From assembly GCA_038208115.1 (NCBI GenBank), contig JBBQZC010000001.1:13977-77976 (forward strand): a stretch of 64,000 bases of DNA. The letters are read 5' to 3'. Source of the DNA: Candidatus Moraniibacteriota bacterium (GTDB lineage Bacteria > Patescibacteriota > Minisyncoccia > Moranbacterales > GCA-2747515). A program made the position numbers and the translations under genes. Of this stretch, positions 8,531-34,702 are shown one piece after another. The notes below the pieces were generated by a model. It saw only the letters and a program-made list of their open reading frames with translations, searched no databases and had not been told where the DNA came from. Within the stretch, counting starts at the first letter, position 1. Every line of letters starts with the position of its first letter.

Positions 8531-9919
8531 TTATTTGATTACTTTTAATTTCTCAAGTGCCATGAGGACGTGAATAGAAAAAACATCAAGAAATTCCAAT
8601 TCTTGTGACGCAATACTGTTATTTCCCTCAAACCCAAGAAATAGAAAACCTTTACATGAATTGTCTGCAATAAATGGAACTACTACAAAATAACTCAAAT
8701 TTCCATTTATATTAAAGTGGGCAATATCATAATATTCACATGAGGAACTTATTGTTCTTTGTTCTTTAATCATTTTTTTGATGAATGCAATTTTTTGCGA
8801 ATCCACTCTTCCAAAAACATTCATTTTTGTCTTATGATATCCCTCTCCAAATACCAAACTAAACAGACCCTTGCTATCATATTTATATATTAAAGCCACA
8901 TTTGCTTGCGAAGAAGTCATGGCAACATTTGTGATATGTGCAAAAAGTTCTTTTTTGTTTTTTTTATAATTTGAGTGCTTATCTATTTCCAATAATGCTG
9001 CAATTTTTCTATTGGAATAACCTACTTGCTCGTAAGCATCGATGAGATTATCTCTAATTTTTTGTTGCAACTCACTTTGAACTACGTGATATTCCTCTTG
9101 ACTTTTTTTTAGATCATAAAACAGTAAGCGATATGGATCCATAAGTCCGATTTCTAAAATGGCCTTATAAATCAAAAGAAATGAAATGTATTTTAGAAAA
9201 TGTCCAAGCATATTCTGGAAATCATAAACATTAATATATCCAGTGAAAATTAACTCTGAAATTACTTTAACGATGAGAGCGAGAGAAAGAAGATTATATA
9301 CTGAAGAATCAAATAATACTTTCTTTTTATAGAGCAATGCGATAGAAACAACAAAAATACCAACAATTACATATTCACTAACTACTTTGAAACGAGTAAG
9401 TCCAGCTGTTTCGGTGTACATATTTGGAAATACATGCCAATAAAATATAGATAGCAACATCAATATTACAATTATCATGTACGTCAGAAATATATAATTT
9501 GCATTGAGTAGAATCCTCCATTGATCTTGAACAGATTTTTTTCTTAAAATAATAAACGCTCCAATAAATGAAAATGCCTCAAGATAGCGTGCACTGATCC
9601 AGAGTTGTGTAGGAAGATTGGTCGTGTGATCCATAAATATATTCATTCCCTTATAACTCAAAACATGTAGCAAATCTAAGCCACCGACAAAAAAATAACC
9701 AATTCCCAGAATAAGCAGATAGTAGTTGCTCACAAAACTTTTTGACGACCATGCGACAGCAAATATGCCGAAAGATATGACTACGGTGAAAAGTTCGATG
9801 AGAGAATGAAATAATAAATAACTATGCAAACTGGTCAATTGTAATACGAAACAGCTCACAATAATCCCTAGTGGGAAAACAAGTTTTCTTATTGCTTTTT
9901 TGTCTGCATTCATATGCAA
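8531..9919 (-). CDS. Membrane sensor protein: multi-TM (MASE-like) N-terminal domain + cytoplasmic GAF-like domain, no obvious output domain
   Basis: About 8 predicted TM helices in residues 1-260, then a GAF-like region (FSLVFGEGYHK...YFVVVPFIADNSCKGFLFLGFEGNN). There is no kinase, GGDEF or HTH. Confidence 0.5.
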   Translation of the reverse strand: MHMNADKKAIRKLVFPLGIIVSCFVLQLTSLHSYLLFHSLIELFTVVISFGIFAVAWSSKSFVSNYYLLILGIGYFFVGGLDLLHVLSYKGMNIFMDHTTNLPTQLWISARYLEAFSFIGAFIILRKKSVQDQWRILLNANYIFLTYMIIVILMLLSIFYWHVFPNMYTETAGLTRFKVVSEYVIVGIFVVSIALLYKKKVLFDSSVYNLLSLALIVKVISELIFTGYINVYDFQNMLGHFLKYISFLLIYKAILEIGLMDPYRLLFYDLKKSQEEYHVVQSELQQKIRDNLIDAYEQVGYSNRKIAALLEIDKHSNYKKNKKELFAHITNVAMTSSQANVALIYKYDSKGLFSLVFGEGYHKTKMNVFGRVDSQKIAFIKKMIKEQRTISSSCEYYDIAHFNINGNLSYFVVVPFIADNSCKGFLFLGFEGNNSIASQELEFLDVFSIHVLMALEKLKVIK

Positions 9920-10682: not shown

Positions 10683-11423
10683 TTACAAACCCATCCTTCT
10701 CCTCGCTTTTATTATTTTTTCTGGAACGATCTCTGTATTTTTGAAAGTAGCTTCCTGCGCTCTACTTTCGCCCGTGTAACGAAAATACTCTTCTTTGAGG
10801 GGATAAAATTCATCAAATTCCTGAATTCTACTTTTTCCCGTGAATCGGATAGGTTCTTTTTTGAGAGGATGAAATTCCTCCAGAATCTCGCTTTTTCTCT
10901 TTCTCCTTTTGTAGCTCTTCACTATTTCATCCTTAATATTCTTGATCTCTTCGTAAATAATTACCACTGCTGGAATGATCACGAGAAGAATGAATCCTGG
11001 CATCGTACGTGCATATCCAATCGGATAACCGATGTATGGGATTATGAAAATTTCTTTGCCGACAACATTACTTTGACTGGTCATCTCACCGTCCACATCC
11101 TCATTGGCATCACCCTTGGTTTTATATGAGATCTTTCCATTATCATTATTTATAGAAACAATGCGATGTGTAATCGTCACTTTCGAATCATTGGTTGCGC
11201 GAGTCACGATGTCACCGACATTATAGTTAGACATGGATTTCACAAAAATAAGACTGCCTGTATGTATCGTCGGTTCCATGGATCCAGATTGTACTGTATA
11301 AACCTTATAATTCCCTTTGATGGGTAAGAAAGTTATCACTATCAAAGCGAGGAATGACAAAATCACTACCCATATAAAACTTCCTATTATTTTGATGATC
11401 TTTGCTGTCATATCTTTTTTCAC
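10683..11423 (-). CDS. sipW: Signal peptidase I, SipW type (archaeal/eukaryotic-like S26B)
   Basis: N-terminal TM, then SGSMEPTIHTGSLIFV (catalytic Ser box) and GDIVT...ITHRIV (His box); C-terminal TM and basic tail. Adjacent to TasA-like genes. Confidence 0.8.
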   Translation of the reverse strand: MKKDMTAKIIKIIGSFIWVVILSFLALIVITFLPIKGNYKVYTVQSGSMEPTIHTGSLIFVKSMSNYNVGDIVTRATNDSKVTITHRIVSINNDNGKISYKTKGDANEDVDGEMTSQSNVVGKEIFIIPYIGYPIGYARTMPGFILLVIIPAVVIIYEEIKNIKDEIVKSYKRRKRKSEILEEFHPLKKEPIRFTGKSRIQEFDEFYPLKEEYFRYTGESRAQEATFKNTEIVPEKIIKARRRMGL

Positions 11424-14026: not shown

Positions 14027-15439
14027 TTAATTTGAGAAATCTGAGATTTCCCCATTAAAATCAATCCAATCGACATATCCAGTATCACCAGATGGTCCAG
14101 GCTGTCCAACGCGAACACCCAACCATGAATCAGTTGAACGTGTTTCGGCATTTGGATAATCCGCAAGGATTTGTGCCCATGTCTTGACTGTTGTTCCAGG
14201 AGTCGTACCTGTAACATCAACTAATCCAATTGGCCAAGTTGCACCCGAATAAGTCCATGAACCTGTAAGTGCATCTACAGTTGTCCACGTATTTGATACT
14301 AGACCAACAGGGACCTGGACAAGTCTTTTTTGCCAAATGTCAGTGTTATTGAAGTCGATATTGAAATTAAGGAATGGCGTGCCGTTCGAAGAATCAATGT
14401 CGTATATACGATATTTAAGAGAAGTTATACCAGACAATTTAACATCATTGTAGCGATAGGTTGCGATGTTGTAACGAGGATTGACACCGCTATCCAAAGT
14501 CATTTGTGCTGCTCCCGTAGATCCCGGACCAGCAACTATGTCATCAATGCCTGCAGTACCGCTAAACTGATTGATTGACATGATTGTGTCATTGGTATCA
14601 TTGTAGAAAAACCATCTGCCGCTTGTTTTTGCTGAAACCAGACTACTAGATTCTATATCATTAGCAGTTATCCCATTATTTCTTGGGGCCGGACAAGCAA
14701 AGTTGTCATTATTTCTCGCTTGTTCAATGTAGAACCAAACATCACCAATTAATGAATCGGATTGCGAAATATTTGTCACAGCCGAACCACTACAATTCAG
14801 GGTTCCGTTTTCAATTCCACTGATTGTTCCATAGCACCAATACAATCCCAGATATTTAGTAGTTGCACCAGTCAGTGTTCCCAAATCATAAGCCTTACCA
14901 GACAAAACATCACTAGCTGGTCCAAAAAATGGATTTGCAAATAAAGGATATTCTCCTGATTCCCAGATATTGTCACCATCAAGATCATCCCAAGCAAAAA
15001 CATTAAGTTCCTGTGCCAACTCTCCTTGGCCTATCCCACCAGTCGTGTCAAATTTGCTTTCTGGTTCAGTAATCCCGTTGTCATCACTTTTCATCTTGTC
15101 AAAAATAACACAAGCTCTCGCGTCATTATTTATAACATGAAGACTTATTGTATTTTCACCCTCGTCCCCTGGCTTTAAATCAGCAAAATCGAAAAACTTT
15201 TGATTTGTGATATCAACACCTGGACTATCTTGACCCCATGTTCCCGCTGGATACGAAGCTCCATTATACGTTGCTTGACTATCAACCTTCAAATCAATTG
15301 AACCAGCCGTAAAATTGTTTCCAGTAGATGTTTCCGTATCACTAAAGAATGAATACGTTCCGTACCCTGCAATCGCAGCGACAGATAGTACGATTAGTCC
15401 GCTTTTGATCATTTTTTTCATAATTTTTTGTTCCCTCAC
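14027..15439 (-). CDS. Secreted TasA/camelysin-like protein with SipW-cognate signal peptide
   Basis: N-terminus ...AGYGTYSFFSDTETSTGNNFTAGSIDLKV. Core FDFADLKPGDEGENTISLHVINNDARA. The likely true start is MKKMIKS (about 15421), with a GAGGGA SD. Confidence 0.6.
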   Translation of the reverse strand: MREQKIMKKMIKSGLIVLSVAAIAGYGTYSFFSDTETSTGNNFTAGSIDLKVDSQATYNGASYPAGTWGQDSPGVDITNQKFFDFADLKPGDEGENTISLHVINNDARACVIFDKMKSDDNGITEPESKFDTTGGIGQGELAQELNVFAWDDLDGDNIWESGEYPLFANPFFGPASDVLSGKAYDLGTLTGATTKYLGLYWCYGTISGIENGTLNCSGSAVTNISQSDSLIGDVWFYIEQARNNDNFACPAPRNNGITANDIESSSLVSAKTSGRWFFYNDTNDTIMSINQFSGTAGIDDIVAGPGSTGAAQMTLDSGVNPRYNIATYRYNDVKLSGITSLKYRIYDIDSSNGTPFLNFNIDFNNTDIWQKRLVQVPVGLVSNTWTTVDALTGSWTYSGATWPIGLVDVTGTTPGTTVKTWAQILADYPNAETRSTDSWLGVRVGQPGPSGDTGYVDWIDFNGEISDFSN

Positions 15440-15619
15440 ATTTTTTTATCTTTTTTCTTTTGTTGAAGTGAAAAAGTGTGAAGAAATAATTTATTAATTA
15501 ATTAATTTTCGCCACCACACATCGCATTGCGATCATTTGGTGAATATTTCGGACATTTTAGGTAGTCCGACACCTTCGACCTTTTGTGACTCATGCTTTC
15601 ACATTTTTTCTACTAAATT

Positions 15620-15926
15620 AAAAAGCCAATGGAATCTCACCAGTTCAACTGATGAGATAACATTGGCTTTTTAATACAAATGTTAATTTTGTTATGGTAC
15701 ATTCACCCGTAATTAATTTAATAAACATAAAAACCGACTTAAACCAAGAGAGTAAAAACTCTCTGACTCTAAGCCGGTTTTGCTATTTGACTCCCCACAC
15801 GCTCATTAGCAACCAATAGTTTCTGAACTTCATGAAACTCTTGCGTATGGATCAATGTCTCTTAAATAATTTTAAAATCACTCTGTTTTAAAATTTTATC
15901 ATAGGTTGTTAATTCATACAAATCAA
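15620..15926 (-). ncRNA. Structured leader RNA, copy B (promoter, conserved core, terminator hairpin 1, second strong hairpin), 5' of a TasA-like gene
   Basis: Minus strand: TTGATT-17-TATGAT (plus 15921-15926 and 15898-15903). Core UUAAGAGACAUUGAUCCAUACGC...UUGGUUGCUAAUGAGCGUGUGGGGAGUCAAAUAGCAAAACCGG. Hairpin plus U-run at plus 15720-15775. Second hairpin with flanking A and U tracts at plus 15620-15672. Confidence 0.55.
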
Positions 15927-16156
15927 GTTATGCACATGTTATGCACTTTTCTCATTTTCTTTTTTTTCGTTTCTCAAATACGCCCGCATTTTCGCTAAAA
16001 AAAATGATGTAATATACATCATTATTTTATCTCATATTATTTTTGCTAATATATATTCACATTTTGTGTGAAAGTACGATTTATATAAAAATCAATCCCT
16101 TCTGGAATTGACACGACGTGATATTTTATTCTTCTAGAGTAAACTGATATATATAC

Positions 16157-16492
16157 TCAAATATCACTCTTATCTTGCGTATTTTTGATTCTTTTGATCC
16201 CTCTCATCCCCAATATAATCAAACAAATAATAAGAATTTTTAAGAAATAGTGTCCACCCAGATCAATAAAATTCCGAGTCAAAGGTGTAATATGACCAAC
16301 AGCAATATGGATGACGATGCTCATGGGCAAAGTCAAAAATATCCAATTTCGTTTGGGTATGTGGATACCACATTTTTTAAATATCCACGACAGCAGCGGG
16401 GAAAGCATAAGAACTCCCAAAAAAGCCAGTGCGAGATCAAACACAGCAAATTCAAATATGCGAAATTGTCTGAGAAATTCTATTGAAATCAT
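16157..16492 (-). CDS. Small integral membrane protein (hypothetical)
   Basis: 111-aa ORF with 3-4 hydrophobic helices and a His-rich HIAVGH stretch. Confidence 0.35.
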   Translation of the reverse strand: MISIEFLRQFRIFEFAVFDLALAFLGVLMLSPLLSWIFKKCGIHIPKRNWIFLTLPMSIVIHIAVGHITPLTRNFIDLGGHYFLKILIICLIILGMRGIKRIKNTQDKSDI

Positions 16493-16776
16493 AATTTTAT
16501 TGAGTACGTAATTTCGTTATACACAGTTTTTTTCTTTTCAATTTTCGACTTACCCACACTAGATTATCTAAGGACACACTACCACACAATCACAGTAATA
16601 CAAAAAAAACACTTATGCACATTTTTATGTACCAGTGTTTCTCCTGGCACTATTTCACTTTCATTCACTTTTTTTTGTTCAGTAACGTGTTACGTAACAT
16701 ATTTTGATAGAGAGAATTTTTTTAAAAAACCAGACTAATCATTTCACTCAGACAATGTTTGATACATATAAACCGA

Positions 16777-17358
16777 CTATCTCATAATCTCATGAAGCAA
16801 CTCTGGAAATGTACTCGTACCCAATTCGCTTGTTCTATAGTGCCCTTTTCCTGTCAATTCGATTACTCGACCGCCTAGTGCATCATGGAAGATTTCCACG
16901 CTCTTTTTACCATCCTCACTTTCATCGTCTGCAGTAAAAATGACAATATCCTCCACTCTCTTTGTAATGGCTGTGTCTATATCATATGTATAAAAAGATA
17001 CTCTTCCACTATCGTCTTTATTGGCTATTTTCCATGGTGCTACAAGGATAAGTTTTGCTATGCTTCGTTGGGATTCTCCCAGCCAACGGACCAAAAAAGC
17101 ACATGCGCAACTGTGTCCGACGAGAATCGTTTTTTCATTAACATCATATTGTTGTAATTTTGTTTTAAATTTTTCATAATCAGGCGCCCATGAAAAAGGC
17201 ATCAGAGGTGCGTCTGCCATTATACTCTCTTTTATCAATTCTTCTTTTATCCACATAGTCCAATGATTTTCTGCAGTTCGTTGCGTCAGTTGTATGGCAT
17301 TCTCTTGATCATATTCGCAACCATGTATAATAATGCAGTTTTTTTGTGAATGAATCAT
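16777..17358 (-). CDS. Alpha/beta-fold serine hydrolase (YdeN/RBBP9-like esterase)
   Basis: About 190 aa with a nucleophile elbow ILVGHSCAC (GHSxG-like) and a C-terminal GKGHY. Confidence 0.55.
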   Translation of the reverse strand: MIHSQKNCIIIHGCEYDQENAIQLTQRTAENHWTMWIKEELIKESIMADAPLMPFSWAPDYEKFKTKLQQYDVNEKTILVGHSCACAFLVRWLGESQRSIAKLILVAPWKIANKDDSGRVSFYTYDIDTAITKRVEDIVIFTADDESEDGKKSVEIFHDALGGRVIELTGKGHYRTSELGTSTFPELLHEIMR

Positions 17359-17482
17359 ATTATTTGATAATATTTATTTAATCGAATAAAAAAAACAGTT
17401 TTAGCATCACCACTGGAGTGGCTTCCGTAATATTTGTGCAGATTCTCGAGACTGTTTGTTCAGATTTTCTCTCATGAATTTA

Positions 17483-17791
17483 AAAAGACCATGGCATCCC
17501 ACCAGTTAAAAACTGGTGGGATAGCATTGGCTTTTTAATGCAAATGTTAATTTTTTATGATACATTCACCCACATTTTTAATATTATAAAAATAAAAACC
17601 GACCTAAACCGAGAGAATATATGTTCTCTGGTTCTAAGCCGGTTTTGCTATTTGACTCCCCACACGCTCATTAGCAACCAATAGTTTCTGAACTTCATGA
17701 AACTCTTGCGTATGGATCGATGTCTCTTAAGTAATTTTAAAAAAACTTTGTTTCTTAATTATATCATAGCTTATTTATTCATACAAATCTA
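17483..17791 (-). ncRNA. Structured leader RNA, copy C (near-identical to copy B), 5' of the hydrolase gene
   Basis: Minus strand: TAGATT-17-TATGAT (plus 17786-17791 and 17763-17768). The same core as B with 3 substitutions. Terminator hairpin at plus 17594-17650. Second hairpin at plus 17483-17537, with the stem covarying relative to B (CCCACCAG/CUGGUGGG versus CUCAUCAG/CUGGUGAG). Confidence 0.55.
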
Positions 17792-18002
17792 GTTATTCAC
17801 ATGTTATGCACTTTTTTCATTTTCTTTTTTTTGTTTTCTCAAATACACTCGCATTTTCGCTAAAAAAACGATTACGATCACAGCAGGCCACCACCACAGA
17901 CCCTCATTTCCATATTGTGACCACAACCAAAGAGATGCGGAAATCGCAAGTATTGGCACCGCCCACATACGCACATTTCTTTTGATTTTTTCCATTTGTA
18001 CT

Positions 18003-21053: not shown

Positions 21054-21584
21054 TTATTTGTTGATTGTAATATTGGAGGTACCTACGACATTCGTAAGAA
21101 GCATTTGTGCACCAGCGTAACCTGTCGTGACACTTCCTTTACCAATTTTGTTCTTTCCGGTATTAGCAGCAGTGATAACCATATTACCAATATTAGCATT
21201 GCTAGTGGTATTGATAGATACAGCACCTTGTGCAGGCATTGTGACTTTTATGGTTGCATCACCAGCGCCATTTCCCACTTCTGCCATAGCCTCAGCGTTA
21301 CCAGTAGTAATTGAGCCAGCTGAACTAGGATGATTATCATGACTGCGAGAATCCATCGTTTGCCCGCCTTTGGACAAATTTAACCCAGTATTACTAAGAG
21401 TCATAATTTTATTGGCAATAGTAGCATTGCTTGTGGTCGTAAGAGTCAAACTTGGACAACATGTGTTTTCACAATTGTTGCAATTGTGATCATCATGTCC
21501 CATTGTTGGAGCTTTAGCGAAAACTACGTTTGCTGTCAAAGCGAAAGCGAAAGTTGCTACTCCAAAGATTATTAATTTTTTCAT
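21054..21584 (-). CDS. Small secreted repeat protein related to the N-terminal repeats of the 887-aa surface protein
   Basis: Signal peptide, a Cys cluster (HNCNNCENTCCPS), then repeated T/N/G-rich units (TSNATIANKIMTLSNTGLN / TTSNANIGNMVITAANTGKN). Confidence 0.5.
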   Translation of the reverse strand: MKKLIIFGVATFAFALTANVVFAKAPTMGHDDHNCNNCENTCCPSLTLTTTSNATIANKIMTLSNTGLNLSKGGQTMDSRSHDNHPSSAGSITTGNAEAMAEVGNGAGDATIKVTMPAQGAVSINTTSNANIGNMVITAANTGKNKIGKGSVTTGYAGAQMLLTNVVGTSNITINK

Positions 21585-21791
21585 GCGTGTTTCACCTTCC
21601 TTTCTAGCTTAATCTGTTGAATAGACTTAAATTGATCCAACAGATTTGATATTACCAGCTGAGAGTTTCATGAACGCTTCAGCTGATCTTGACTTTTTAT
21701 GTGTCTACAAATTAAGTGCGGATGCACCAATCGTGATTTGTACATTCGTACGCAATTCACCCGTTTGCCTTTTGGGACAGGCAATTTGTAG

Positions 21792-22102
21792 AAAAAAAGC
21801 CAATTGCATCACACCAACCGACGTTGATAGTATGCAATTGACTTACAAAATTCAATTTGTATCTAGAAATAGACATTTCACCCGTACTTAATTTTTACGA
21901 AATAAAAAAACCGACTTATATCAAAAAACTCCTGTTTTTTGAATTAAGCCGGTTTTGCCATTTGACTCCCCACATGCTCGTTAGCAACCAATAAAGTTTC
22001 TCATCTCTTTAGAAACCCATGCATGTAGATCAACATCTCTTAAATATATTCGATTTTAAATTCAACTTTATTGAAGTATACCATTTTCAAAAAATCGCAC
22101 AA
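21792..22102 (-). ncRNA. Structured leader RNA, copy D, 5' of the small secreted repeat protein gene
   Basis: Minus strand: TTGTGC-16-TATACT (plus 22097-22102 and 22075-22080). Core UUAAGAGAUGUUGAUCUACAUGC...UUGGUUGCUAACGAGCAUGUGGGGAGUCAAAUGGCAAAACCGG. Terminator hairpin at plus 21904-21960. Second hairpin plus U-tract at plus 21792-21845. Confidence 0.5.
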
Positions 22103-22875: not shown

Positions 22876-23112
22876 GATGCATATGACCATTTCACTAAAG
22901 CACAAACCTGTTTGGACGATTGTCCAGACAGGTTATTTTTTTCTTACATTATTGCTATTATATGCCTTTCACGCACACCGTGTATACTACCATATTTTTC
23001 ATCTATCCTGACATTTTACTTAACATTTATCTTCATTTTTTGTCCGTTGTATTGTAGCAAAATAAAAAAGTCGTCACATTGAAAATATTACACTCTCAAT
23101 GGACGACTCGCG

Positions 23113-28305: not shown

Positions 28306-29304
28306 TTAATGAATCGGCGTTACATTTTTTGTATAGGAATTATTTCCTTCATCACTTTCATCAACGTCTGCATCAGAATCTACGACCGCCTTTGTCGTAT
28401 AATTCGCCCATCCACCATATGTATAGTCACACTCCACCGTTTCACTATCTCCCACTTTAAGGATATCGATTTTCTCGTGACACGCTCTGCTACCAGTAAC
28501 CGTTGGCCACCATTCCCAATAAAAATCTTCTGCATCGGTTTCGCCCTTGTTTTTAATCTTGAAGCTCACAGTGAACTCTTCTCCCTGCGTAGGATCATGA
28601 TTAAACTTATAATCACTAATGGACAGATCAGCCTTTTCTGCTACAGCAATCTCTTTTTTGCTTACATTATTATTCTCATCAATTTCATCATTTTCATCTT
28701 TTGTGTCTACAATGAACTTTGACGCATAGTCATCTACTTCATTATATACATAATCACACTCGATCATCTTTGTCGCACCGACAGCCAATCCATCTTCATC
28801 ACCTTTGCAATCACGACCGGAACTTGTCGGCCACCATTCCCAGCTGAAAGATTTTGACGCTACCGTGCCTTTGTTTCCTACAACAATCTTTGCCGTAAAC
28901 TCATCTCCAATCTTTGGGACTTCTCCGAGATCATAACTTTTCACATAGAGATCCGGCTTCTTTACAACATTTTTTGTTGCTTCGTCCGTATTTTTAGAGT
29001 CATTCACAGCGGGGGCATTTGATTCTTGTGTGATGCTCGGTGGCTTCGCTGTTGTGTCAACAGTGTTCTCACCAGAAGTTGTGGTTTTTTGTGTTTCCAT
29101 TTCATTCGGTTGACCATCATCCGATTTTTTTAGTGCGTAAACTACAAGAAATCCAATCAAAACAACTATTAAAACGACAAGGAGAACGGTCATAACCCAC
29201 TGAAACGGCGTAAACTTTTTTGAAGACTGAATATCCAAAGGGTGCTCAGTTACTTCCGTCGGCTTTGCGTCATTTTTTTCTATCGACATTGGTTCGTTTT
29301 CCAT
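28306..29304 (-). CDS. Membrane-anchored protein with two CARDB-like domains
   Basis: N-terminal TM (type II), a T/P-rich linker, then two about 110-aa repeats (VGNKGTVASKSFSWEWWPT... / IKNKGETDAEDFYWEWWPT...CDYTYG) typical of CARDB. Confidence 0.55.
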   Translation of the reverse strand: MENEPMSIEKNDAKPTEVTEHPLDIQSSKKFTPFQWVMTVLLVVLIVVLIGFLVVYALKKSDDGQPNEMETQKTTTSGENTVDTTAKPPSITQESNAPAVNDSKNTDEATKNVVKKPDLYVKSYDLGEVPKIGDEFTAKIVVGNKGTVASKSFSWEWWPTSSGRDCKGDEDGLAVGATKMIECDYVYNEVDDYASKFIVDTKDENDEIDENNNVSKKEIAVAEKADLSISDYKFNHDPTQGEEFTVSFKIKNKGETDAEDFYWEWWPTVTGSRACHEKIDILKVGDSETVECDYTYGGWANYTTKAVVDSDADVDESDEGNNSYTKNVTPIH

Positions 29305-29491
29305 CGATTTATTGTTAATTTTTACAGATATTCATTTAACAACAGTATACCATAAAAATCGTGAAATATGCGTAATTTGATGTCCTTGTTTTCTTTCGCG
29401 TATACGCATCTCTAATTTATTATTTTGCGAGAAAACACAAAATTCCCCGCAAAGTGAGCCATTTCTGACTCCATACTCATTCCTGGATATG

Positions 29492-29537
29492 ACTGTTCAA
29501 GGTAGCCCTCACGAGGAGATTTTTACCTTGAACAGTT
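29492..29537. repeat. Perfect 13-bp inverted repeat (hairpin) at the island boundary
   Basis: ACTGTTCAAGGTA-n20-TACCTTGAACAGT between the AIPR-like gene stop and the CARDB gene start. Confidence 0.5.
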
Positions 29538-29695
29538 TTGCAAACCACGCACCAATACGGCGGTTGGGCTTGTGCTTAAGTAACATATTCAGTTATCACC
29601 TACACTTTATCATTCATCTTAACTATGTCTAATTAAGGAGCTTTTTTTTATTTTTTAACATAATTAAATTAGTTTTTCCTAAATTTTGCCATATT

Positions 29696-30904
29696 TTACC
29701 TTTTATTTCTAACCAACTGATCCATCTTCAAATCCAAAGTTGTCCAAACTAAACGACTTTTTGCAAATGTTTGCGGCTCATAGCCAACCTCCTTTAATGC
29801 CTTTTTATAAGGTAATGCAATATCTTGCAAGTTCTCTTCTAAAAATTCTGATGGATTTTTTGAAAACTTCAAAATACCATTATCTTCAACTAATAAATTT
29901 CTAAAAGATGCAAAGAGAGGATAAATCCAACCAGCTGGGATTGCATAATCAACTTCATCATCAATATATGGCAAAAGAACTCTTCGTTGTTTAACTACAA
30001 GATCTCCACTTCTTTTCTCTATAGTCCTAAAGTCATCTCCTAAAATCTTTGGCATATTTAGATTAATATTATCCCAAAGTTCAACAATATCCGGCAACAA
30101 CCTTGTATATTTTGCAACATTTTTTTCATCAAACATTTTTTCAAATGTTTCCAAAACCTTTTTTTTACTTGAATATGCTTCAATTGGTACATTTTCACCT
30201 TCAATTGGATATTTATCAATATTATATGCAACCAAATATCCAACCAGATCTGCAACTTTAATTTTTTTAACTCTTCCGTCATCATCAGTCTCATATTCAG
30301 AATATGATATTTGATTTTGGTACGGCTTACCATCTACAGCAACTTTAATATCATCAAATACATTCATCATATTATACAAAGTTTCTTTTCTGACCTGCAA
30401 TGCTGTATTTCTACTTTCCACAATATCTGTAACAGACTCTCTTGTATTAAAACCAACCAAAAATTCAATCTTTAAATACACCTCATCTTTAGCCAACTCA
30501 TCAGTGCTATCTGAAAAATAGTCTTTTAAAACATCGTATGTATGACCACCATCTGCAATTCCATGAAAACTTCTGTTATTTAATGTGATTGTAATTGATT
30601 GATTTTTATTATCAAAAACAAAATCATCTGCAAGCATCAAAAGCCCTTTATTACGATAAAAAAACTGATCGGGGCTATCATCAAGAGTCTCGCGCATTGC
30701 TTTCCACGCAAGTGAGCTTCTACGAGGTTCTCGTGGATTTATTGCACGAAATGCATCTAATTTATCAGCTTGATTTATAAATGCCATCGCATTCACAGTA
30801 ACAACAAATGACTTAATTCCTTTCTTTTCGTGACCAGGCACTACAGACAATTTCTTGACTGCATCATTATCAAAAACTGGTAACGTAATTACAACATCTT
30901 TCAT
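29696..30904 (-). CDS. AIPR-like (abortive-infection phage-resistance) family protein, putative
   Basis: 402 aa. The N-terminal region has NPREPRRSS...YRNKGLLMLADD...HGIADGGHTY, reminiscent of AIPR/DGQHR-type Abi proteins. Family assignment is from memory and not verified. Confidence 0.35.
   Translation of the reverse strand: MKDVVITLPVFDNDAVKKLSVVPGHEKKGIKSFVVTVNAMAFINQADKLDAFRAINPREPRRSSLAWKAMRETLDDSPDQFFYRNKGLLMLADDFVFDNKNQSITITLNNRSFHGIADGGHTYDVLKDYFSDSTDELAKDEVYLKIEFLVGFNTRESVTDIVESRNTALQVRKETLYNMMNVFDDIKVAVDGKPYQNQISYSEYETDDDGRVKKIKVADLVGYLVAYNIDKYPIEGENVPIEAYSSKKKVLETFEKMFDEKNVAKYTRLLPDIVELWDNINLNMPKILGDDFRTIEKRSGDLVVKQRRVLLPYIDDEVDYAIPAGWIYPLFASFRNLLVEDNGILKFSKNPSEFLEENLQDIALPYKKALKEVGYEPQTFAKSRLVWTTLDLKMDQLVRNKR

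Positions 30905-33212: not shown

Positions 33213-34702
<1,490 letters not shown>

Follow-up and report, generated by a model that had tools for sequence, protein, structure and literature searches.

A predicted c-di-GMP-II-class riboswitch with a putative dual-terminator expression platform, duplicated ahead of surface-protein operons in a Moraniibacteriota bacterium

We analyzed a window of 64,000 nt from a Candidatus Moraniibacteriota bacterium (assembly GCA_038208115.1, contig JBBQZC010000001.1, positions 13,977 to 77,976), in which three structured leader cassettes, B, C, and D, precede neighboring operons of the secreted or fibre type. The cassettes and the surrounding genes all lie on the (−) strand, where they read in the order leader D, a 176-aa gene, the gene for an 887-aa DUF11 protein, a 63-aa open reading frame (ORF), cassette C, a Ser_hydrolase gene, a 111-aa gene, cassette B, three TasA/camelysin-like genes, and a SipW-type signal peptidase gene (Table 1). 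In each cassette, a riboswitch aptamer is followed by a terminator-like hairpin (T1), a short conserved box, and a second terminator-like hairpin (T2); copy D (about 21790-22050) keeps the same layout and spacing as B and C. Our analysis slightly favors the view that T1 and T2 form a dual-terminator expression platform behind a single riboswitch.

Table 1. Features of the leader cassettes and adjacent genes (coordinates of the window; R1, model of the leader; R2, model of the box plus T2; ΔG, predicted folding free energy)
Feature	Position	Strand	Evidence or remark
Cassette B, upstream of the TasA/camelysin-like operon	15613-16004	−	aligned with cassette C
Cassette C (small-ORF 3′ end, promoter, aptamer, T1, box, T2)	17475-17869	−	aligned with cassette B
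Candidate sigma-70-like promoter B, TTGATT-17-TATGAT	15898-15926	−	9/12 matches in consensus scan
Candidate promoter C, TAGATT-17-TATGAT, TATAAT overlapping	17763-17791	−	homologous to promoter B (offset 1865, gap-free)
Putative c-di-GMP-II-class aptamer B (P1, P2/k-turn, P3 with 36-nt loop insert, pseudoknot)	15763-15871	−	RF01786 28.9 bits, E = 6e-4
Putative c-di-GMP-II-class aptamer C	17628-17736	−	96% identical to B; R1 152.6 bits
Putative c-di-GMP-II-class aptamer D	21938-22049	−	RF01786 30.7 bits; R1 138.8 bits
Leader copy A (aptamer and T1; box and T2 absent)	1404-1546	−	RF01786 27.7 bits; R1 129.1 bits
T1, copy B	15729-15781	−	ΔG −28.3 kcal/mol, U5
T1, copy C (predicted riboswitch terminator)	17594-17646	−	ΔG −25.2 kcal/mol, U5
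T1, copy D	21904-21956	−	ΔG −23.8 kcal/mol, U7
Conserved box, copy B, CGGGUGAAUGU	15699-15709	−	motif limited to leaders B, C, and D
Conserved box, copy C, UGGGUGAAUGU	17562-17572	−	motif limited to leaders B, C, and D
Box, copy D, CGGGUGAAAUGU	21873-21884	−	same box with one extra A
Second box, copy D, GGGUGAAUUG	21753-21762	−	~120 nt past the first D box
T2, copy B (core stem 15625-15667, U-tract 15620-15624)	15617-15675	−	ΔG −34.4 kcal/mol, tail UUUUUAAUUU
T2, copy C (U-tract 17482-17486)	17480-17538	−	ΔG −31.9 kcal/mol, tail UUUUUAAAUU
T2, copy D (hairpin 21797-21844, U7 21792-21798)	21792-21844	−	ΔG −23.9 kcal/mol, tail UUUUUUUCU
TasA/camelysin-like protein gene, SipW-dependent-type signal peptide, 3′ of cassette B	14027-15421	−	PF12389, TIGR04088
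SipW-type signal peptidase gene, last of the operon opened by 14027-15421	10683-11423	−	TIGR02228, NF046067
Ser_hydrolase-family protein gene, 3′ of cassette C	16777-17358	−	PF06821, E = 6e-13
176-aa protein gene, 3′ of cassette D	21054-21584	−	ORF translation; N-terminal hydrophobic, signal-peptide-like stretch
63-aa small membrane-protein ORF, last 22 codons within cassette C	17804-17995	−	ORF list; two hydrophobic segments

Cassettes B and C proved to be copies of one another. An ungapped repeat search paired 15713-16003 with 17578-17868 (291 nt, 89% identity) and 15647-15690 with 17511-17554 (44 nt, 91% identity), and a gapped alignment of 16004-15613 (B) with 17869-17475 (C) matched at 343 of 396 columns (87%), including 5 gap columns. 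Beyond these limits, segment-wise scoring found only 35–40% identity, and the flanks are unrelated AT-rich DNA. The first-pass annotation of this window had described a block of 450–480 bp at about 90% identity; aligned pairwise, the two regions show real homology rather than short chance similarity, but the block is smaller and less conserved (~395 bp at 87%), and the left end proposed for copy B (15541) lies ~70 bp too far out. Identity varied from 96% in the aptamer and 91% in the upstream ORF-derived stretch to 79–81% in the promoter, the remainder of T1, the spacer, and T2, the copies differing at 53 alignment columns in total. Furthermore, a contig from an independent Logan assembly (L017) matches window positions 15824-17662 exactly and breaks inside the 87 nt over which the two aptamers do not differ, as a true repeat would lead one to expect; this exact match, together with the break in the identical aptamer cores, indicates that B and C are real and distinct, not an assembly duplicate. 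A 30-nt leader core occurs three times in the window against zero expected occurrences, and the folding z-scores are −8.7 and −7.5.

The limits of the block are informative about its origin. The homology begins within a T-run, which in C falls inside the last 22 codons of the 63-aa ORF, and stops directly past the T2 U-tract. The upstream 66 nt of cassette B (16004-15939) are a non-coding relic of these same 22 codons, and since the stretch is coding in C and non-coding in B, the sequences suggest that the duplication ran from C to B. Both junctions lie within T-runs, so the event may have used T-tract microhomology at either end. An AT-rich hairpin, ATGATGTA-TAT-TACATCAT followed by T8 (15996-16022 on the (−) strand), coincides exactly with the upstream junction of this cassette B block.

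T2 was recovered as a strong hairpin in B and C, as described in the first-pass annotation, and the analogous hairpin and box reported there for copy D were found as well, with a U7 tract and the same spacing (Table 1). In all three copies, the stem is closed by G-C pairs and followed by U5–U7, which is the structure of an intrinsic terminator. A scan of the window for single hairpins of −14 kcal/mol or lower followed by at least five U returned 17 sites, 7 of which are T1 or T2; among the others, those at 23070, 25567, and 36250 stand directly after genes, which indicates that this genome uses intrinsic terminators of this kind. T2 equals or exceeds these gene-end hairpins in strength and is among the strongest sites in the window. 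Folding models thus predict that T2 is an intrinsic terminator.

The D hairpin can be aligned in register with the T2 hairpins of B and C over its whole length, and 89% of the cells in the pair count are paired among the three sequences, compared with 22–43% when the partners are slid; double changes are seen at three pairs (G-C/U-A, U-A/C-G, and G-C/A-U). The paired substitutions that had been proposed between B and C are present but fewer than was implied: one pair is fully compensatory (U-A to C-G) and another changes from wobble to Watson-Crick (U·G to C-G), with two mismatches in the outer stem of copy C. The position of the internal loop shifts between copies, and the internal loops are not conserved. 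Because only three T2 sequences are available, we added a stability test, in which T2 of copy B was randomly mutated with the observed number of stem substitutions. With the 7 substitutions that separate B from C, the mutants had a mean of −11.6 kcal/mol, compared with −26.8 kcal/mol for the real C hairpin (p about 0.001); with the 12 that separate B from D, the corresponding values were −8.3 and −23.4 kcal/mol (p about 0.002). The retained stability indicates that the structure of T2 is under selection, while its sequence drifts like the seemingly unconstrained parts of the block, and copy D and the stability test together compensate for the thin compensatory evidence between B and C.

The dual-terminator arrangement behind one aptamer is also kept in its spacing. 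Measured from GGGGAGU, T1 lies at +61 to +69 and the T2 U-tract at +172 to +175 nt in B, C, and D, with ~55 nt between the T1 U-tract and the T2 stem and a further 117–206 nt from T2 to the downstream start codons. Minimum-free-energy folds of B and C contain the complete T2 whether the aptamer is free or held closed, so T2 is predicted by this thermodynamic model to fold independently of the aptamer state. An A-tract precedes T2 in B and C and is missing from D, which restricts the conserved function of T2 to the (−) strand and excludes a bidirectional role. Three other origins or roles for T2 were considered and rejected. A plus-strand or bidirectional terminator conflicts with copy D, which has no A-tract, and with the DNA on the far side of T2, which is non-homologous between copies. 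A relic of a second riboswitch unit would be expected to resemble the first, but local alignments of the GGGGAGU-to-T1 and box-to-T2 segments scored like shuffled sequences (p = 0.26–0.90). A dispersed palindromic repeat or miniature inverted-repeat transposable element would occur elsewhere, and no copies beyond B, C, and D were present in the window plus 22 related loci (175 kb). Likewise, a scan of viral contigs returned no T2-like copies, and neither a purpose-built model nor Rfam found a box-plus-T2 module outside a c-di-GMP-II leader in the 175 kb.

As to the class of the aptamer, an Rfam scan at the gathering threshold returned no match at these leaders. At relaxed thresholds, RF01786 was the only meaningful match for copies A, B, and D, at 27.7–30.7 bits; copy C was not among these matches, though its aptamer is nearly identical to that of B. 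The low scores arise because a 36-nt insert, which forms an extra hairpin, takes the place of the 12-nt P3 loop in the model, and a variant with such an enlarged P3 would consequently be overlooked by routine annotation. A pattern taken from the leader core, TTGGTNGCT...GGGGAGT...GCNAAACCG, retrieved 14 metagenomic loci, several of which reach the Rfam threshold for c-di-GMP-II or for its sister model c-di-GMP-II-GAG. Specifically, aptamers scoring 61.0, 57.8, and 56.5 bits exceed the RF01786 gathering score of 53.5 bits and have the same pseudoknot core, and one aptamer reached 53.0 bits on RF03169. Many of the retrieved loci are upstream of TasA-like or other secreted-protein genes, with related leaders located 45–90 nt 5′ of secreted-protein genes. 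Some relatives fit c-di-GMP-II-GAG better than RF01786, which is why cyclic di-GMP (c-di-GMP) is treated here as a presumptive ligand. Two of the loci, both metagenomic and of high GC content, carry tandem c-di-GMP-II-clan aptamers 5′ of TasA/camelysin-like genes, namely, three aptamers in L014 (1780-2197), where the gene-proximal one is best matched by the GAG variant, and two in L007 (218-474).

We aligned nine leaders of the Candidate Phyla Radiation (CPR) type, i.e., the four copies in the window and five relatives (L002, L003, L004, L006, and L009). Across P1, P2, P3, and the pseudoknot, 95.3% of the cells were paired, compared with 27–46% in slid controls, with double substitutions at 7 pairs in all and at 6 of the 8 pairs of P3; the P1, P2/k-turn, and P3 helices are thus backed by covariation, as expected of a member of the c-di-GMP-II class. 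The pseudoknot joins GG-UUGCUA to UAGCAA-AA-CC through 8 pairs (94% paired), with two bulged adenines beside the CC/GG clamp. One of its pairs alternates between U-A and C-G across the nine leaders, and the same switch holds in 17 of 18 leader sequences when all 14 relatives and the four window copies are considered. On this comparative evidence, we assign the leader to the c-di-GMP-II riboswitch class as a CPR variant whose P3 loop contains an extra hairpin, and ligand binding is predicted.

T1 is conserved to a similar extent, with 90% of the cells paired and 6 covarying pairs across the nine leaders, and it formed when the leader was folded without constraint. Its 5′ strand (AAAACCGGCUUAGA) doubles as the 3′ strand of both the pseudoknot and P1. 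Since the strand is shared, bound ligand should block T1, and the riboswitch would be expected to act as an ON switch. The candidate promoter of cassette C scores under the scan threshold on its own, and a consensus scan, which is insensitive, showed no promoter-like site between T2 and the start codons.

The box is the other element that accompanies T2. Its motif, YGGGTGAA(A)T[GT], occurs four times in the 64 kb, exclusively in these leaders, and the distance from YGGGUGAA(A)UG to the T2 stem is 41 nt in B and D and 40 nt in C. Several roles for the box and the spacer were tried and rejected. A leader peptide starting at the box AUG would differ in frame and length between copies (21, 19, and 39 aa), and the AUG stands 0–1 nt past GGUGA, compared with 7 nt at the ribosome-binding site of gene D, the one clear GGUGA-type site here. 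Pairing of the box back to the 5′ part of the aptamer is possible at 9 of 10 positions in copies B and C, but copy D does not preserve it. An antiterminator in the spacer was dismissed as well; the pairings that appear in partial-transcript folds use one register in B, another in C, and do not occur in D. Near the starts of local genes, we detected no complement of the box. Regarding a second aptamer of the kind seen in tandem riboswitches, Rfam returned no match in the spacer or T2.

Beyond the shared layout, copy D contains a second box followed by a hairpin without a U-tract (21690-21771 on the (−) strand), which may represent a partly deleted second copy of the box-plus-T2 module. The entire 5′ untranslated region (UTR) of D, 326 nt long, is strongly structured (z = −4.4). 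Copy A, like every relative retrieved, lacks both the box and T2. It has a good promoter (TTGTTG-17-TGgTATAAT), yet ~1.4 kb downstream holds no ORF of more than 85 aa on either strand; the minus strand of this stretch has 304 G versus 175 C and no similarity to the local surface proteins. This locus may represent an orphan riboswitch, a long non-coding RNA under riboswitch control, or a decayed gene.

As for the neighboring genes, a SipW-dependent signal peptide is recognized in two of the three TasA/camelysin-like proteins 3′ of cassette B. The 176-aa protein encoded 3′ of leader D is probably secreted, judging from its N terminus, and the gene that follows encodes the 887-aa DUF11 surface protein (Pfam). 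The 63-aa ORF is also called in the Logan assembly and has weak Pfam matches only. The closest homologues of the neighboring proteins come from Moranbacteria, Kaiserbacteria, and other Parcubacteria, and all 10 proteins tested either are singletons in 90% clusters or do not occur in the collection. The sole relative of the leader in the species-level genome collection is in a Moraniibacteriota metagenome-assembled genome, which, with the protein homologues, places the bacterium in the CPR. No leader of this kind accompanies the nearest TasA-like homologues (65% and 57% identity). Just 3′ of the SipW/TasA-like operon lies a gene for a protein with a MASE3 membrane sensor domain (8531-9919 on the (−) strand, E = 6e-82). 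MASE3 is commonly N-terminal to c-di-GMP-turnover or kinase domains; here, the C-terminal ~200 aa have no Pfam match and could be a divergent output domain. Elsewhere in the window, a LOOT RNA (RF03000) matches at 29456-29570 (−) with 64.2 bits against a gathering score of 46.4, flanked by an AIPR-domain gene (29696-30904) and the gene for a CARDB-domain protein (28306-29304), and a complete bacterial 16S rRNA gene (33214-34702 on the (−) strand, 1414.9 bits) has several helices that are shorter than in the Rfam consensus. The 64-kb window yielded no tRNA genes.

Taken together, we consider it somewhat probable that the leaders are c-di-GMP-II-class riboswitches with a dual-terminator expression platform that spread by segmental duplication before SipW/TasA-like surface-protein operons. 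Under this model, T1 would form when the ligand is absent, and transcription would halt after ~160 nt. Bound ligand would hold the pseudoknot and P1, as the strand overlap implies, so that T1 is blocked and RNA polymerase proceeds to T2 ~110 nt later, which would fold whatever the state of the aptamer. T2 would then be a second stop in series without an aptamer of its own, so that very little basal read-through would reach the surface-protein operons. T2 would have to be leaky itself or be relieved by some factor, whose only candidate site would be the box. With regard to history, the aptamer-T1-box-T2 unit may have arisen once in this lineage, with D diverging first and B and C resulting from a later 395-bp segmental duplication that took with it the final 22 codons of a small gene, an event that would have placed three neighboring surface or fibre operons under the same control. 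The genes downstream (the SipW/TasA-like operon, DUF11, and other secreted proteins) are consistent with the dual-terminator model. The first-pass annotation had suggested multi-step attenuation or two stacked RNA modules; it had recognized neither the (−)-strand orientation of all these features nor its leader RNA as a c-di-GMP-II-class riboswitch with the first hairpin as the expression platform. The tandem terminators and the conserved structure of T2 bear out its first suggestion, and multi-step attenuation is a reasonable description, with an identifiable sensor for the first step only; the notion of a second sensor was not supported, given the short T1–T2 distance, the lack of an Rfam match, the absence of an antiterminator above chance, and the fact that T2 folds alike with the aptamer open or closed.

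Several observations weigh against the dual-terminator model. If T2 were efficient and unrelieved, the riboswitch could not turn the genes on, and we found no relief mechanism. Duplexes formed by the spacer with the 5′ strand of T2 had energies no better than those of shuffled spacers (p = 0.17, 0.04, and 0.88). The end of the duplicated block at the T2 U-tract would also fit transcripts that normally end there. T2 is absent from copy A and from five CPR-type relatives, all of which have T1 only, and is therefore not general to this riboswitch class. In addition, the evidence for T2 comes from three sequences in two independent lineages, with no genome of a close relative, and the RF01786 scores of copies A, B, and D fall below the gathering score.

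In an alternative that we regard as unlikely, though deserving of some weight, the box and T2 constitute a separate attenuator for a second signal, either an RNA-binding protein or a small ligand, such that the genes would need c-di-GMP and this signal at once. The box is the sole conserved single-stranded element, is restricted to the leaders, occurs twice in D, and keeps its 40–41 nt from T2, and folds of partial B and C transcripts show pairing between the box region and the inner 5′ strand of T2; moreover, tiny terminator-embedded sensors behind another riboswitch are known (PMC9481103). However, the complementarity between spacer and T2 remains within shuffled controls, the pairing register is unlike in B and C and nonexistent in D, T2 lacks conserved internal loops, Rfam returned no match, and the module never occurs without a c-di-GMP-II leader in the 175 kb searched. 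The fuller version of this idea, namely, that the box and T2 are a new, tiny protein- or ligand-sensed attenuator behind a c-di-GMP-II riboswitch, giving two-signal fibre expression and duplicated as a unit, seems to us a shade less credible again. Alternatively, each cassette might be its own transcription unit and T2 its true 3′ end. The ligand would then select between transcripts of ~160 nt (T1) and ~275 nt (T2), the long form carrying the box as a functional or seed region, while the downstream genes would have their own promoters. That the B/C homology ends right past the T2 U-tract, that T2 is strong and unresponsive to the aptamer state, and that copy A, which has a promoter, an aptamer, and T1 and is followed by 1.4 kb free of ORFs, demonstrates that gene-less leaders can exist would all suit such a riboswitch-controlled small RNA. 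We nevertheless find it doubtful, as all three cassettes are co-oriented with the genes that follow, these genes are of the type directly controlled by the leaders of relatives, no promoter-like site was detected between T2 and the start codons (by the insensitive scan), and no complement of the box lies near local gene starts.

The remaining readings take T2 to be something other than a stop for its own leader. Its selected structure and drifting sequence would also be expected of a conserved 5′-UTR element that serves as an mRNA stabilizer or, once the RNA is cleaved, as a processing or protection hairpin, or of a stop for transcripts from upstream operons. The last option draws on cassette C, where the stop codon of the 63-aa ORF (17804-17806) is ~10 nt from the −35 element, with no terminator between this ORF and the promoter, and transcripts from upstream must therefore enter the leader. 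Yet U5–U7 is kept in all three copies after a G-C-closed stem, a terminator-specific feature, and cassette B retains T2 despite a terminator-like hairpin further upstream (16091-16112), which makes a UTR or insulator function quite improbable. Finally, short hairpins and T-runs are common in AT-rich DNA and the window derives from a single metagenomic source, so chance similarity or an assembly artifact, with a functionless second hairpin, had to be considered. This explanation is hardly tenable and was refuted by the identity of the block relative to its flanks (87% over 396 columns), by the 53 differing columns and the independent contig that is exact between the copies, and by the outcome of the stability test; the folding z-scores speak against it as well.

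CPR bacteria, which are uncultured, combine tiny genomes with a life attached to other cells; to our knowledge, almost nothing is known about their second-messenger signaling. Three neighboring secreted or fibre-type operons with a c-di-GMP-II-class riboswitch point to c-di-GMP control of the CPR cell surface. We know of essentially no described dual-terminator riboswitch platform other than that of the Bc1 RNA, and a structure-selected T2 would represent an evolutionarily independent second case of this rare arrangement. The B/C pair further implies that a whole promoter-riboswitch-terminator cassette can be copied before new genes as a portable regulatory unit. The riboswitch class of the leader is already known, though its clade and variant form here are unusual, and the dual terminator is rare yet has been described.

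Among known systems, RF01786 (clan CL00127) is the closest in the aptamer itself. The window leaders have its P1-P2/k-turn-P3 layout and GGAG core, its pseudoknot between the P3 loop (UUGGUYGCU) and the 3′ tail (GCRAAACCG) with the bulged AA, a terminator that overlaps the 3′ strands and implies an ON switch, and a position upstream of surface, adhesion, and fibre genes; their core strings are common to the threshold-passing metagenomic members. They depart from the family in the extra P3-loop hairpin (36 nt versus 12 nt in the model) and in coming from CPR (Parcubacteria/Moranbacteria-like) genomes. In overall architecture, the cassettes recall EutX and Rli55, small RNAs that are controlled by an adenosylcobalamin riboswitch and have two alternative terminators. 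The shared order is promoter, riboswitch, T1, a short functional extension, and T2, with the ligand picking the short or the long transcript. The window cassettes differ in lying directly 5′ of co-oriented genes that are typical for the riboswitch class, and we identified no trans target for a cassette RNA. A third parallel is the tandem of a thiamine pyrophosphate (TPP) riboswitch and a small terminator-embedded hydroxymethylpyrimidine pyrophosphate (HMP-PP, thiS) riboswitch, of which 131 cases were reported (PMC9481103). There too, a second hairpin that could easily pass for a plain terminator stands behind a riboswitch that has a terminator of its own, but neither T2 of the window leaders nor its surroundings showed conserved aptamer features.

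The closest match to the expression platform is the Bc1 c-di-GMP-I riboswitch of the Bacillus cereus group, in which two rho-independent terminators 28 bp apart precede the ORF, an arrangement that its authors call rare (PMC11218506). In Bc1, c-di-GMP unfolds T1 and leaves T2 intact, T2 adjoins the ribosome-binding site and affects translation too, and Zur binds the DNA encoding the dual terminator (PMC11218506). The window system, known from sequence alone, differs in its class II aptamer (versus GEMM-I), in the wider terminator spacing of ~55 nt (from U-tract to stem), and in the 117–206 nt that separate T2 from the start codons; the two have no sequence homology and would share a mechanism rather than belong to one homologous family. 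What they have in common is one aptamer followed by two terminators, of which T1 is predicted to respond to the ligand and T2 to stay folded in the models, and a possible protein-binding site between or around the terminators, which is Zur-bound in Bc1 and would be the box in the window leaders.

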